A stretch of DNA of 64,000 bases from Escherichia phage vB_Eco_J-01, in sequence record PQ438393.1. One strand, 5' to 3'. A program made the position numbers and the translations under genes. Each line of letters starts with the position of its first letter. Positions within the stretch are counted from its first letter, which is position 1. The notes beneath the pieces were generated by a model. It was not told the DNA's origin. It saw only the letters and a program-made list of their open reading frames with translations, and did no database searches. This document shows positions 37,977-43,148 of the stretch, piece by piece.

Positions 37977-38219
37977 TTACTGAAGTTCAAAGATATCCCC
38001 ATCTCCATCATATCCATACTCTAACTCTCCTGTATCATATAATACAATAAAGTCTGTATCATCTTCAATAAAAGATTTAGCATAATCTACTAACTCTTCA
38101 TTATCTTCATAACCTTCCAGGTACTCAATACGACCATTGATACACTTAGCTGCAACAACTCCTGGGCCATTGCTTGGAGTCCACTCACTGTATACTCGCA
38201 TGCCTAATTCTTTAATCAT
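37977..38219 (-). CDS. hypothetical protein
   Basis: ORF track 37977..38240; ATG 38219 after GAGGAG. Confidence 0.45.
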   Translation of the reverse strand: MIKELGMRVYSEWTPSNGPGVVAAKCINGRIEYLEGYEDNEELVDYAKSFIEDDTDFIVLYDTGELEYGYDGDGDIFELQ

Positions 38220-38436
38220 TGTTTGTCTCCTCATAATCAATGTAGTTGTAACATTTATTCTTTAAGAAATCTTCTGCTTGTTTATTGTGTTTCAGAATGG
38301 TGCACTTCTCTATGTTATGTTCTACATTGTTGTGTAGATTGTATAAGTTAGATGCACCATACAGGATACCAATTAACAAAAGCAAAAAGATTGCTGTTGA
38401 TAACAAAAATTGTTGCAACTTGTTTACAGACTTCAT
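38212..38436 (-). CDS. small membrane-anchored protein (paralog of 42930..43148)
   Basis: N-terminal helix; shared C-terminal pattern C-x-KH-x3-AE-x-FL-x3-C-x2-Y-x2-Y. Confidence 0.5.
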   Translation of the reverse strand: MKSVNKLQQFLLSTAIFLLLLIGILYGASNLYNLHNNVEHNIEKCTILKHNKQAEDFLKNKCYNYIDYEETNND

Positions 38437-38489
38437 AAACCCTCCTTATCGTTAGTACACATTGATACTAACAAGAAGTTAAGATCGTG

Positions 38490-38663
38490 TCAACATCTTT
38501 GTGTTAATTTTATCCACTGTTCACATTCTTCTTTTGTGTCGTACTCTACAGGCTTTCCTGTATCATTTCCACAACCATCTCCGAACGTAGCCCACCAGGA
38601 GAATAGAAAACAAGTTTCTCTTACTCTCCACCTATTGGCATAAGGTACAACATAATAACTCAT
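38490..38663 (-). CDS. small protein, 57 aa (not in ORF track)
   Basis: ATG overlaps upstream TGA (ATGA); hand-translated; YVVPYANRWRV...TKEECEQW. Confidence 0.4.
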   Translation of the reverse strand: MSYYVVPYANRWRVRETCFLFSWWATFGDGCGNDTGKPVEYDTKEECEQWIKLTQRC

Positions 38664-38911
38664 AAGATTGTGATCCTTAGTTCATTTTCTAAGGTATGTC
38701 TCACACATTCTTTGAAATTGTTATCAATATAAACCACACGTACTCCATGAGGTGTTTCTTTACATTCAAACACATTATATACAGTGTCAGATAAGACATG
38801 TTGTACGTTTACTTGTCCAATACCATCTTTAACCACAACCATTACTTTCAGTAAACTTGTATGGTTTTTAACTTCATCTTCTACGTATGCTACAACATCT
38901 TTGATATTCAT
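38660..38911 (-). CDS. hypothetical protein
   Basis: ORF track; CAGGAG RBS. Confidence 0.45.
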   Translation of the reverse strand: MNIKDVVAYVEDEVKNHTSLLKVMVVVKDGIGQVNVQHVLSDTVYNVFECKETPHGVRVVYIDNNFKECVRHTLENELRITIL

Positions 38912-39207
38912 CGTTTCTCCTGTTTAAGTACGATATAAGATTGACGAGATTTCCATCGTCCGATCTTAACAAGGCAAATAATGCCCCTCTTTAACAGATA
39001 TTTCATATCTTCGTCATAAGCTGTTTGCAATTGCCACTTACTGTTAACAGGAAGAGAACCATGTACCCTTAAGTGAGCTAACAGATACTTTCTTCGCTCC
39101 TTCCCATAAGGCAGATATTGCCATTCTTTCTTTGATACAGGTTCATGTACTTTACGATGCCAGTAAGTAAGGTGTCTTCTTTTATGTAAACCCCTATTCC
39201 TTACCAT
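38908..39207 (-). CDS. hypothetical basic protein
   Basis: ORF track; GGAGG RBS. Confidence 0.45.
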   Translation of the reverse strand: MVRNRGLHKRRHLTYWHRKVHEPVSKKEWQYLPYGKERRKYLLAHLRVHGSLPVNSKWQLQTAYDEDMKYLLKRGIICLVKIGRWKSRQSYIVLKQEKR

Positions 39208-39446
39208 TATACCTCTACCTCCGTTACCCCAGGATCTCTAGTCCAGGTGTAGTAGAGCATACCATCTTCTTTCAGTGCAATGCGATCACTTTCGTCTCGA
39301 AGATATAGGTCACATACTACGCGGAGTTGCGGATCTGATCCGAGTAGTTCTGAAACAATAAGGTCATCACCGCTCATACGAGCAACAATCACTGCATATT
39401 GACCAGTATCTGCATCAAAAATTGGTTGTCCGATGTTTAATTGCAT
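39207..39446 (-). CDS. hypothetical protein
   Basis: ORF track; AAGGAG RBS. Confidence 0.45.
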   Translation of the reverse strand: MQLNIGQPIFDADTGQYAVIVARMSGDDLIVSELLGSDPQLRVVCDLYLRDESDRIALKEDGMLYYTWTRDPGVTEVEV

Positions 39447-39631
39447 TGTGTTGTCTCCTTATTCAGTACGTTGTTTTGTGCTGCGCACCAGCACTCATAA
39501 AAACCTTGGGCTAATGGCATAGTGTAGTTTCCAGAAGGATCTCTTTCGAGATCCCCATCTGCATAACAACCACTACCTAAGAACCATTTTTCAAAATCGG
39601 ATAAATCATCCCAATCTACACTATTTTTCAT
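39437..39631 (-). CDS. hypothetical protein
   Basis: ORF track 39437..39718; internal ATG 39631 avoids overlap with upstream gene. Confidence 0.35.
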   Translation of the reverse strand: MKNSVDWDDLSDFEKWFLGSGCYADGDLERDPSGNYTMPLAQGFYECWCAAQNNVLNKETTQCN

Positions 39632-39632
39632 A

Positions 39633-40839: not shown

Positions 40840-41236
40840 GTGCCATTTCCACAAGATTTTTAATCATAGTTTCTCGACAGAGATTCCACATGTCCGAAGC
40901 AACCATAGCAGCATATTCATCGGGGTTGGATTCTGGTAAAATCTCTTTAACTGCTTCTGGTGTCGGATTGCACATAGCAGGTAGTGCTTTAAGTGCATCT
41001 TCAACAGAGAGCTTCTTACTTTCACTGTAAATAACCTCGTAATCATAGTCATTTACATCTTCCGAAATATCCCGATCCAGGTAACGTACAGTCGAGTTAT
41101 GCATTTTGTTCATAGCTTCACTAACACCAGCGCCACAAAGCTGTGCAACTTCTTTAGAGATACAGTCACAAATAACAACTTCGTAAGGCTTTCCACCATA
41201 ATACTGCGCATTATATTTGATTTTAACAGACCACAT
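40832..41236 (-). CDS. hypothetical protein
   Basis: ORF track; AAGGAG RBS. Confidence 0.5.
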   Translation of the reverse strand: MWSVKIKYNAQYYGGKPYEVVICDCISKEVAQLCGAGVSEAMNKMHNSTVRYLDRDISEDVNDYDYEVIYSESKKLSVEDALKALPAMCNPTPEAVKEILPESNPDEYAAMVASDMWNLCRETMIKNLVEMAHE

Positions 41237-41246
41237 ATTACTCTCC

Positions 41247-41933
41247 TTATTTAACGTGTTTTAGCAATTCAATGTTGGCAGAATAGTTTTCACCACAATT
41301 AGTAACGCTCAACAGTGACCATTTACAAGAGAATACACCTTTTAGATGATCTGGAACACACATCAGCGGAACATAAACTGTTTCTGAATCTTCTGTTTGC
41401 TCTGTTTTGTTAACATTGCAACAAAATGGCAATACATCATCATGAATCATTTTACATTCACTTAAATTATCTAACATATGTGAAACTTGTTCTGAAGTTT
41501 CAAACATTTGTGCTTCATAAGCCAGTGCACCGACCACTTGATAAGCCTCTCCACACAAATCTTCTAGCTCTAAGATACGTTCAGACATAGCTTCAATGAT
41601 GGCTGATCGTGCTTTCACCTTAGTTTCTGCTTCTTTAATTTTCTTCTCAAGTTCTGCAATGTACTTCAGTAGTGCACTAACAACATCTGGAGTATTTTCT
41701 TGATCATCTTGGGAAATTTTTACCAAAGAAGAAGCTGCTTTGCAGCGCACTTTAGGCTCTACGTAACCAAAAGTCATATTTTCCGAAGAAGATTGTTGTG
41801 AAAACCAGTGTTTGTTCGAAGAAAACACAGGTTCATCTTCAAACCAGAACACATCCCCAGTGATATCACGAGCCATGAAATTTGCATTGTCTGGAACTTC
41901 GTAACGATGCCCTTCAAACATAATCTCTTTCAT
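41247..41933 (-). CDS. hypothetical protein with central coiled coil
   Basis: ORF track; GGAGG RBS. Confidence 0.5.
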   Translation of the reverse strand: MKEIMFEGHRYEVPDNANFMARDITGDVFWFEDEPVFSSNKHWFSQQSSSENMTFGYVEPKVRCKAASSLVKISQDDQENTPDVVSALLKYIAELEKKIKEAETKVKARSAIIEAMSERILELEDLCGEAYQVVGALAYEAQMFETSEQVSHMLDNLSECKMIHDDVLPFCCNVNKTEQTEDSETVYVPLMCVPDHLKGVFSCKWSLLSVTNCGENYSANIELLKHVK

Positions 41934-42517
41934 TACACATCCTCCATTTGGAACATCTTCTTGTGGTTAGAATAGATCTGTTTGAAAATCTTGTCAAGGC
42001 GTTCATATGATTCTTTATGCTCTTGTTTCCATCCGTGATTTCGGATTTTATCTGCCAGATCATAAACCTCGCATAAAACTTTGGCAAAGTTGGTATTATC
42101 TATAGCACAAGCCTCAAAACCTTGAACTAAACCCTCTACATCATACCACGTATAGTCAGAGTCACTAGGAGGATTCCCTGCATCGGCTAAACGTTGCCTC
42201 ACCCATTCGATACGTTTTTCATTCAAATGGCACTTACCTTCCCTACATTCTTGTTCTAATTCTTCTTTAGATTCGTTGAATGGGTGAAGGACAGGTAGCT
42301 CTGCTTTTTGCAATTGCTCCAGATATTCTCCTACAATGCGCATAGCTTCACTGTGTGTACACTTTCTACCTGTGTGCCAGTAACGGAAGATACTTTCTGT
42401 TAAACAGATGTTTTTACTAAACATCGCATTGTCTTTAACATTCGATCTATTAACCCAGTCTATATAATATACATAAAACTGCAATAATTCATAACTGCTT
42501 GGTATAATTTTACTCAT
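41933..42517 (-). CDS. hypothetical protein, paralog family A
   Basis: Shares LLQFY, LHPFN and RIEWVRQRL blocks with 43141..43491 and 45424..45789. Confidence 0.5.
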   Translation of the reverse strand: MSKIIPSSYELLQFYVYYIDWVNRSNVKDNAMFSKNICLTESIFRYWHTGRKCTHSEAMRIVGEYLEQLQKAELPVLHPFNESKEELEQECREGKCHLNEKRIEWVRQRLADAGNPPSDSDYTWYDVEGLVQGFEACAIDNTNFAKVLCEVYDLADKIRNHGWKQEHKESYERLDKIFKQIYSNHKKMFQMEDV

Positions 42518-42695
42518 GATCTCTCCTTAATTGTGAAAAATGTTATCGATCAGTATGACTAATAGTACGAGGATAGAAGGGAGCAGGAATAGAAATCTTA
42601 ACATTATGTGATGCGTGTGAGAAGCGGCTTTAGCGCCAGCCGCCAATAAGCCTACTAATCCTACAATAAAGAGCAGTTGTTCAGGGACACCCATA

Positions 42696-42920
42696 TTATG
42701 AAACACTTGGATACTCCGTAAGTTTGGCTAATAGTTGGATATGTGGACACGTAAACTGTTGTCCTGGATAGCGTGAGCTAATATCATCCAGTAAAGCAAT
42801 CACAGCATTGTGCAATGCTTCGTAATCCTCATAATACACCATCTCTCCATTAGGATCTTCAACAATGTCGCAGTGACAAGCGTGAGCAGTACACGCATCC
42901 CATTCCAGACGTTTTACCAT
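42696..42920 (-). CDS. hypothetical protein
   Basis: ORF track; AAGGAGG RBS. Confidence 0.45.
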   Translation of the reverse strand: MVKRLEWDACTAHACHCDIVEDPNGEMVYYEDYEALHNAVIALLDDISSRYPGQQFTCPHIQLLAKLTEYPSVS

Positions 42921-42929
42921 AAATCCTCC

Positions 42930-43148
42930 TTACTCATACATTTGATAAGATACATAACGATTGCAATCAAGTGCGAGAAACTTTTCAGCATCTCTTTGAT
43001 GCTTGAACACAATACACTGTTCTTTTTTAGCTTCACTTTCACGAGCTTCTCTTGCCATATACTCACCTAAACGAATGATACCAGAGAATAACACGTATGC
43101 AAGAATAAGACAAACAGAGATTGCACAGAAAGTTTTAAACTTAATCAT
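42930..43148 (-). CDS. small membrane-anchored protein (paralog of 38212..38436)
   Basis: ORF track 42930..43178; ATG 43148 after GGAGG; conserved C-terminal Cys pattern. Confidence 0.5.
   Translation of the reverse strand: MIKFKTFCAISVCLILAYVLFSGIIRLGEYMAREARESEAKKEQCIVFKHQRDAEKFLALDCNRYVSYQMYE

Follow-up and report, generated by a model that had tools for sequence, protein, structure and literature searches.

Two related genes in the window

Escherichia phage vB_Eco_J-01 (sequence record PQ438393.1) carries two small genes, here called A and B, in a stretch of 64,000 nucleotides that was analysed as a whole and is referred to as the window. They are diverged members of a single small family, which is restricted to phi92/phAPEC8-like myoviruses (Stephanstirmvirinae). 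In brief, each encodes a short protein with an N-terminal hydrophobic segment and a C-terminal motif holding two cysteines, the knob. The features of the two genes, taken from the list of open reading frames (ORFs) and from the sequence, are as follows.

38212..38436 including the stop codon, minus strand: gene A, 74 aa (ORF list; orthologue of phi92 gp022; phrog_23204)
38441..38447, minus strand: Shine-Dalgarno sequence of A, AAGGAGG, with a 4-nt spacer to the ATG (read from the sequence)
38350..38409, minus strand: hydrophobic segment of A, FLLSTAIFLLLLIGILYGAS, residues 10-29, putative signal-anchor or core of a cleavable signal peptide (Kyte-Doolittle)
38233..38304, minus strand: knob motif of A, CTILKHNKQAEDFLKNKCYNYIDY, residues 45-68, C-x16-C (pattern match, alignment)
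42930..43148 including the stop codon, minus strand: gene B, 72 aa (ORF list; orthologue of phi92 gp007; phrog_15662)
43155..43159, minus strand: Shine-Dalgarno sequence of B, GGAGG, with a 6-nt spacer to the ATG, within the 3' end of the upstream gene
43074..43133, minus strand: hydrophobic segment of B, TFCAISVCLILAYVLFSGII, residues 6-25, putative N-terminal signal-anchor (Kyte-Doolittle)
42945..43016, minus strand: knob motif of B, CIVFKHQRDAEKFLALDCNRYVSY, residues 45-68 (pattern match, alignment)

The full protein sequences are MKSVNKLQQFLLSTAIFLLLLIGILYGASNLYNLHNNVEHNIEKCTILKHNKQAEDFLKNKCYNYIDYEETNND for A and MIKFKTFCAISVCLILAYVLFSGIIRLGEYMAREARESEAKKEQCIVFKHQRDAEKFLALDCNRYVSYQMYE for B. 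An earlier note on this DNA, made from the sequence, had given the coordinates of both genes exactly and had left the strand unstated. Both ORFs lie on the minus strand, and plus-strand translations of the two intervals are riddled with stop codons. A longer ORF for B, with a TTG start, reaches 43178. We placed the start at the ATG because GGAGG lies 6 nt upstream of it and because GenBank records and homologues begin there. The ribosome-binding sites of both genes are strong.

Paralogy of A and B

The earlier note had proposed that A and B are paralogous, and four lines of evidence bear this out. A BLASTP comparison of the two proteins gave E=2e-8 with 29% identity across 51 aa. The Smith-Waterman score was 71, compared with 22.9 +/- 4.3 for shuffled sequences (z=11), and none of 5000 shuffles scored as high. 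Both proteins match their own PHROG over the full length, A to phrog_23204 with E=6e-51 and B to phrog_15662 with E=9e-39. PHROGs labels both as 'unknown function' and keeps them as two unrelated families. A also matches phrog_15662 with 3.6e-6, and B matches phrog_23204 with 2e-6; these reciprocal cross-matches and a joint alignment show that the two PHROGs form one family. A hidden Markov model (HMM) of the family, searched against the window, found A and B only (E=4e-25 and 7e-28), the next best ORF having E=0.3. In the test for the C-terminal motif, HMM E values were 1e-24 to 2e-27.

The pattern C-x-[IV]-x-KH-x3-AE-x-FL-x3-C-x2-Y-x2-Y, on which the proposal had been built, matches exactly twice when all six frames are translated, once in A (38233..38304) and once in B (42945..43016), both on the minus strand; about 5e-10 matches are expected by chance. 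Misalignment of these residues had been named as a ground for rejecting the pair; the motif positions line up, and the two cysteines among them are invariant in an alignment of 34 sequences.

Members, distribution and selection

Word-indexed searches with single sequences returned close orthologues only. A tblastn search against GenBank phages gave matches limited to the knob, in Phapecoctavirus (phAPEC8 gp0031) and Klebsiella phages, and a profile search recovered 65 proteins. When 1.84 billion representatives (at 50% identity) were searched exhaustively with HMMER, 18 matched at E<=1e-3. All but one are 54-83 aa long (17 proteins); the other, P0069, is 131 aa long and has the N-terminus of A fused to unrelated sequence, being either a fusion or a frameshift variant. 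Scans of IMG/VR yielded few loci, confirmed by their first sequence only, and GenBank phages and contig look-ups were more informative.

Orthologues of A occur in 55 phage records at the cut-off of 90% identity, their actual identities being 92-100%, and the A-type is confined to Justusliebigvirus. The B-type is found throughout the phi92/phAPEC8 subfamily, as orthologues and as distant homologues. Together the two types are conserved in more than 120 phage records, with Escherichia, Klebsiella and Salmonella as recorded hosts. Every contig above 50 kb that bears a family gene is a phi92/phAPEC8-related phage contig of 90-157 kb, and there the genes are always found amid small unannotated genes on the same strand. 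The A-type is the most diverged branch: its motif has 0.46-0.60 nonsynonymous substitutions per site (dN) to all others, compared with 0.05-0.43 among B-types.

The ratio of nonsynonymous to synonymous substitution (dN/dS) is 0.1-0.26 in most pairs of A orthologues, with 0.45 in the closest pair, and mostly 0.1-0.3 for B. Comparisons of distant members show saturation at synonymous sites and a preserved motif; omega, where computable, is about 0.07-0.35. Both genes are thus under purifying selection, which indicates that their products are functional. One could still argue that A and B are two spurious ORFs, alike by chance and without a functional product. They are short, the region is AT-rich and dense in ORFs, and the annotation is hypothetical throughout. 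The chance expectation of the pattern, the shuffling test, the strong ribosome-binding sites, the dN/dS values of 0.1-0.3, the survival of the motif beyond synonymous saturation and the breadth of conservation together refute this explanation, the probability of which we take to be practically nil. The family is uncharacterised but genuine.

Known families gave few leads. A Pfam scan of A and B at E<=10 returned CD20, ATP-synt_E and SecD-TM1 only, all below cut-off, an NCBIfam scan gave no match above noise, and the PADLOC models of anti-phage defence gave no family at E<=10. A profile search and Foldseek found no relatives in the PDB beyond generic long helices. One marginal profile match, to L-selectin/CD80, was rejected as chance on grounds of length, gap and E value (E=0.02). 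The L-selectin match covers 31 columns (profile positions 28-58 against residues 79-111 of 5vc1_A, E=0.022) with a 2-residue gap, and pairs E-x-C-I-V-L-K...KFLD..C of the knob with E-D-C-V-E-I-Y-I-K...KWNDDAC of C-type lectin domains. C-type lectins have a domain of about 120 aa, EPN/WND calcium sites and at least two disulfides; A and B lack these features and are too short. In a literature search we found no work on phi92 gp007 or gp022.

Protein architecture and predicted fold

All complete members share one layout: a short basic N-tail, a strongly hydrophobic segment, a linker of 15-20 residues and a C-terminal motif of about 25 residues. The anatomy described here was compiled from 68 motif-bearing members, and invariance was read from the 34-sequence alignment. 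The N-terminal sequence drifts freely across the family while this architecture stays constant.

The N-terminal hydrophobic segments reported in the earlier note are present in both proteins, the best 19-residue Kyte-Doolittle means being 2.41 for A and 2.56 for B. They are preceded by the N-tails MKSVNKLQQ in A and MIKFK in B, each with two lysines. Across the family the hydrophobic run is 17-29 residues long, has a 17-residue Kyte-Doolittle mean of 2.47 and is found in all complete members. The highly charged linker between this segment and the first cysteine measures 17.8 +/- 2.4 residues.

The family motif is E-x-C-I/T-x-x-K-x4-A-x-x-F-L-x3-C-x2-Y/L-x2-Y with a fixed C-x16-C spacing, and A and B both conform to it. 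In A numbering, E43, C45, K49, L58, C62 and Y68 are invariant and I46, L48, A54, K56 and F57 nearly so. The two cysteines noted earlier as conserved are kept in every complete member recovered, the most distant ones included. Additional cysteines occur in the hydrophobic segment only and are unconserved. Position 50 is H, Y or Q across the family, and because H50 varies in this way a metal site is unlikely.

AF2 predictions from the family alignment gave pLDDT values of 82.7 for A and 72.9 for B, with identical secondary structure. Both proteins are modelled as a helix from residue 2/3 to 50/51, a turn, a short helix at 54-59 and a helical turn at 62-64. C45 lies within the last turns of the long helix. 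The model of A superimposes on an independent BFVD model of a B-type protein with a TM score of 0.81-0.86. As judged from sequences and models, the conserved residues would mostly pack the two helices together, with surface positions differing between A and B.

Proposed topology and disulfide

We suggest that the segment inserts with its N-terminus inside and its C-terminus outside the cytoplasm (N-in/C-out) and that C45 and C62 form a disulfide; both together are likely. An invariant cysteine pair, with the other cysteines variable and within the hydrophobic segment, is the pattern expected of a structural disulfide in an exported domain, and it supports the extracytoplasmic disulfide suggested in the earlier note. 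A basic, short N-tail before a long hydrophobic run is the sequence layout of a signal peptide or a type II signal anchor. The N-tail is typically 2-9 residues long with 0-2 K/R, and many subfamilies have an acidic residue immediately after the segment. On average the N-tail has 1.4 K/R, and the first 15 residues beyond the segment contain 2.7 K/R and 3.3 D/E. These charge counts favour the N-in/C-out orientation only mildly.

The two copies may differ in what happens after insertion. The GenBank record of phi92 notes a SignalP 3.0 signal peptide on gp022, the orthologue of A, with a probability of 0.985 and cleavage after residue 27, and has no such call on gp007, the orthologue of B. By eye, the end of the segment in B has no small residues at -3/-1. 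Judging from these sequence features, A may be released into the periplasm after cleavage and B may still be anchored. The description of both proteins as membrane-anchored in the earlier note may be wrong for A in view of the SignalP 3.0 call.

Two allele classes of B

B occurs as two alleles. In the window and in phi92 the protein ends with ...ALDCNRYVSYQMYE and is 72 aa long. In Eryne, PATM and others it ends with ...EQDCGRYVNYN, is 69 aa long and is followed by an extra gene of 82 aa. The nucleotide divergence between the allele classes is 1.6% in anchor and stalk and 24% from the first cysteine codon onwards (Fisher p=8e-7). Comparison of 42930..43016 (minus strand) of the window with L001:7968..8435 showed that the break is sharp at this codon. 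The jump in divergence implies that the knob behaves as an exchangeable module, which would be the expected pattern if the knob determines specificity.

In some records the 82-aa gene after the 69-aa allele is named 'M20/M25/M40 family metallo-hydrolase', which looks implausible for a product of that size. It should also be noted that three B proteins derived from metagenomes (P0032, P0033 and P0034) have a frameshift directly behind ...SEAKK. The site is a stretch of six A that corresponds to about 43017..43034 (minus strand) of the window, within GCTAAAAAAGAACAG. P0034 continues in the frame of the window ORF 42914..43066. These frameshifts are probably assembly errors at a homopolymer, slippage being an alternative.

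Genomic position and expression

The window is 97% identical to Justusliebigvirus genomes. Four records labelled 'Campylobacter phage' with C. jejuni as host (MG065639, MG065645, MG065656 and MG065689) are about 97.6% identical to this coliphage region. Probably these records are mislabelled or give the wrong host, or their sequence comes from a contaminant.

The window contains the counterpart of the 343-bp left terminal repeat of phi92, at 46438..~46096, and therefore crosses the genome termini of a circularly assembled record. By this mapping A is located about 8 kb, and B about 3.3 kb, from what is the left end of the genome in phi92. Both belong to an extended run of small, closely packed genes that all point one way and are annotated as hypothetical almost without exception; from the repeat downwards every gene is on the same strand. 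The position near the left genome end suggests that this is an early, host-takeover arm, and we infer early expression of A and B by the host RNA polymerase. The following two features bear on their expression.

38465..38493, minus strand: candidate sigma-70-like promoter upstream of A, TTGACA-17-TAGTAT with an extended -10 TG (consensus scan, 10/12 plus TG), in the sole intergenic gap upstream of A
43141..43491, minus strand: gp006-like gene upstream of B, 116 aa, phrog_2510; its stop overlaps the start of B by 8 nt

Six phages are 100% identical over the 71 nt that precede A, and their coding sequences of A differ by 1-6%. We call the promoter from its position and this invariance, not from scan statistics; the element is a probable host-polymerase promoter.

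For B, the overlap of its start with the upstream stop suggests translational coupling. The arrangement of a B-type gene immediately behind, and overlapping, a gp006-like gene recurs in phAPEC8 and in metagenome contig L014, and a gp006-like gene is found within about 1 kb of the B-type gene in L012, L016 and L018. The overlap of the B-type start with the preceding gene is 1-13 nt in phAPEC8, L014, L016 and L018, that gene being gp006-like in phAPEC8 and L014. The genes adjoining A and B are all in PHROGs of unknown function and give no functional clue.

Terminator-like hairpins are frequent in this part of the window: 14 were found in 36000..47500, compared with 5.7 +/- 2.4 in shuffles. One example, at 37911..37893 on the minus strand, is located just downstream of the pair formed by A and gp023.

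Other paralogues and small proteins of the same arm

A second family of paralogues (phi92 gp006/gp010-like; phrog_2510/phrog_27059, unknown function) has copies at 45424..45846, 43141..43491 and 41933..42517, all on the minus strand. They share LLQFY..W, GLC.C, HPFN and N.KR..WV..R. At least six consecutive copies are present in the related metagenome contig L014 (1543..4010), and B-type genes are always within about 1 kb of a gp006/gp010-like gene, often directly downstream of it. The copy at 45424..45846, of 140 aa, is located between the terminal repeat and the gp001 orthologue, where phi92 has no counterpart.

Two more pairs were found on the minus strand. The gp008 (42696..42920) and gp025 (37288..37560) proteins have a common N-terminal domain (E=2e-5), to which gp025 adds a DnaJ-like CxxC zinc-finger. 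The gp018 (39207..39446) and gp023 (37977..38240) proteins are linked via homologues from Klebsiella phages. The gene after B is gp008, and gp025 comes two genes after A, an order that may reflect an old segmental duplication.

The arm also encodes further small hydrophobic proteins on the minus strand. The gp009 orthologue (42527..42706), two genes downstream of B, has 59 aa, two hydrophobic stretches and a SignalP note in phi92. Another, at 36137..36349, has 70 aa and is annotated as 'membrane protein' in Eryne.

Possible function

As an overall explanation of the pair we tentatively favour a family of exported knobs that block phage entry, at somewhat less than even odds. The exported-knob architecture on its own is probable. 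In this model the N-terminal segment would insert N-in/C-out, persisting as an anchor in B and perhaps being cut by signal peptidase in A. This would leave a helix-turn-helix knob on a short helical stalk outside the cytoplasm. The knob would have a small hydrophobic core of I46, L48, A54, F57, L58, Y65 and Y68, locked by a C45-C62 disulfide made by DsbA. A stalk of about 19 helical residues would put it about 3 nm above the inner membrane, and a stalk this short implies a partner exposed on the periplasmic face of the inner membrane rather than in the outer membrane or the peptidoglycan. We speculate that the knob binds the DNA-entry machinery of later related phages, that is their tape-measure or ejection proteins, or a host inner-membrane component that these use. 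The result would be superinfection exclusion of the type known from T4 Imm or HK97 gp15, and the two paralogues and the swapped knob alleles of B would represent different binding specificities. As the specific function of A and B, superinfection exclusion is suggested by analogy and is possible, though doubtful. It is unlikely that the family is a new class of superinfection-exclusion or entry-blocking proteins in large enterobacterial myoviruses. In that reading a minimal knob, stapled by a disulfide and carried on a short stalk, would cap the conduit by which the DNA of incoming phages crosses the inner membrane. The duplicated and diverged A, possibly a soluble periplasmic peptide, and the recombining knobs of B would be the trace of an arms race between related phages.

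Several points weigh against the entry-blocking model. No homology ties the family to a function, and the superinfection-exclusion part is drawn from analogy and location. We found no data on transcript timing in the literature on Stephanstirmvirinae. Taken over all its sites, the promoter scan does not exceed chance (39 sites, compared with 43 +/- 6 in shuffles). The positive-inside signal is weak, and phAPEC8-type N-tails are without any K/R.

These last two observations would also suit a C-terminal domain in the cytoplasm, with N-out/C-in topology or peripheral attachment, cysteines that are cross-dimer metal ligands or part of the core, and a cytoplasmic or membrane-embedded target; the excess of K/R after the segment (2.7, compared with 1.4 in the N-tail) points the same way. 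Such an arrangement is quite improbable given that an N-tail of 2-9 residues with 1-2 K/R before a hydrophobic run of 17-29 residues is the layout of a signal peptide or anchor, that the first residue after the segment is acidic in many subfamilies, that SignalP 3.0 calls gp022, and that H50, the sole other position capable of binding metal, varies. The main rival keeps the N-in/C-out topology and changes the target: the knob would bind the periplasmic part of a sensor kinase, a transporter or an envelope machine in the host inner membrane and retune the host early. An MgrB-like layout, a short N-in/C-out peptide with a periplasmic cysteine pair, fits this, as do the short conserved linker that keeps the knob close to the membrane and the location of the genes in a region of the early host-takeover type. 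With Escherichia, Klebsiella and Salmonella as hosts, a conserved host target is plausible. The exhaustive search, however, matched phage-type proteins only, Pfam and NCBIfam gave no match, and the swapping of knob alleles in B better suits a fast-evolving, phage-derived target than a conserved host protein. We consider a host target unlikely.

A role in lysis, either antiholin-like as for T4 RI or spanin-like as for the i-spanin Rz of lambda, is less probable still, at a level that we regard as very low. The gross layout is shared, with an N-terminal membrane segment and a helical periplasmic part with cysteines, and T4 rI is likewise remote from its holin gene. The exported part of 46-47 residues is, however, far short of spanning the periplasm, for which an i-spanin uses a coiled coil of at least 100 aa, and no ORF with a lipobox, as expected for an o-spanin partner, is present within about 800 nt of A or B on either strand. 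For want of a lipoprotein partner and of length, the spanin reading was rejected. The segments are moreover strongly hydrophobic (Kyte-Doolittle 2.4-2.6) with 30-35% Gly/Ala/Ser/Thr, unlike releasable signal-anchor-release (SAR) domains. The genes are located at the early genome end, and no Pfam match to holin, antiholin or spanin families was found.

Phages of the phi92 and phAPEC8 types find wide use, both in cocktails for therapy and in model collections (BASEL, for example), and the genes of their early arm are almost all unannotated. If A and B do block entry or retune the envelope, they would bear on mutual interference among the phages of a cocktail and would offer a periplasmic binding module that is very small and folds by itself. 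For now they are a well-defined candidate, not a discovery.

Comparison with known systems

Small membrane proteins with a comparable outline are known from the host and from other phages. The PhoQ regulators MgrB and SafA of E. coli, of 47-65 aa, have one N-in/C-out transmembrane helix and bind the sensor through a tiny periplasmic domain, and MgrB requires both of its periplasmic cysteines. They show that mini-domains can control sensor kinases. A and B differ from them in not being host proteins and in cysteine spacing and motif, and Pfam, NCBIfam and the exhaustive search showed no sequence similarity to MgrB or other host small proteins. T4 RI and lambda Rz are N-terminally anchored proteins with helical periplasmic domains.

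T4 Imm blocks genome translocation and has the tape measure protein as its binding partner, a mode also proposed for HK97 gp15; T4 Imm is a hydrophobic bundle of four helices with a periplasmic N-terminus (bioRxiv 10.64898/2026.03.06.709160). As proposed here, A and B would resemble T4 Imm and HK97 gp15 in being small phage proteins of the inner membrane that act at its periplasmic face; T4 Imm is also early. A and B differ from T4 Imm in having a single hydrophobic segment and being otherwise polar, with a predicted soluble, cysteine-stapled C-terminal knob, and the Pfam scan at E<=10 gave no match to the Imm_superinfect profile.

T4 Spackle (gp61.3) is an all-helical periplasmic protein with a Cys29-Cys81 disulfide and a cleaved signal peptide of 22 residues (PMC7650644). 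The proposed A and B likewise would be small, early and exported with one intramolecular disulfide, and A is perhaps cleaved too. A PDB profile search and Foldseek gave no match in sequence or fold to the solved structures of Spackle. Mature Spackle, of about 75 residues, is an inhibitor of the tail lysozyme gp5, whereas B seemingly stays anchored; the 2026 paper on the phi92 structure makes no mention of lysozyme or peptidoglycan. The family of A and B is unstudied, and its kind, small exported early phage proteins, is already familiar. Among the roles of small early proteins of phages at this face of the inner membrane, the periplasmic one, the best documented are superinfection exclusion and, as for T4 Spackle, inhibition in the periplasm.

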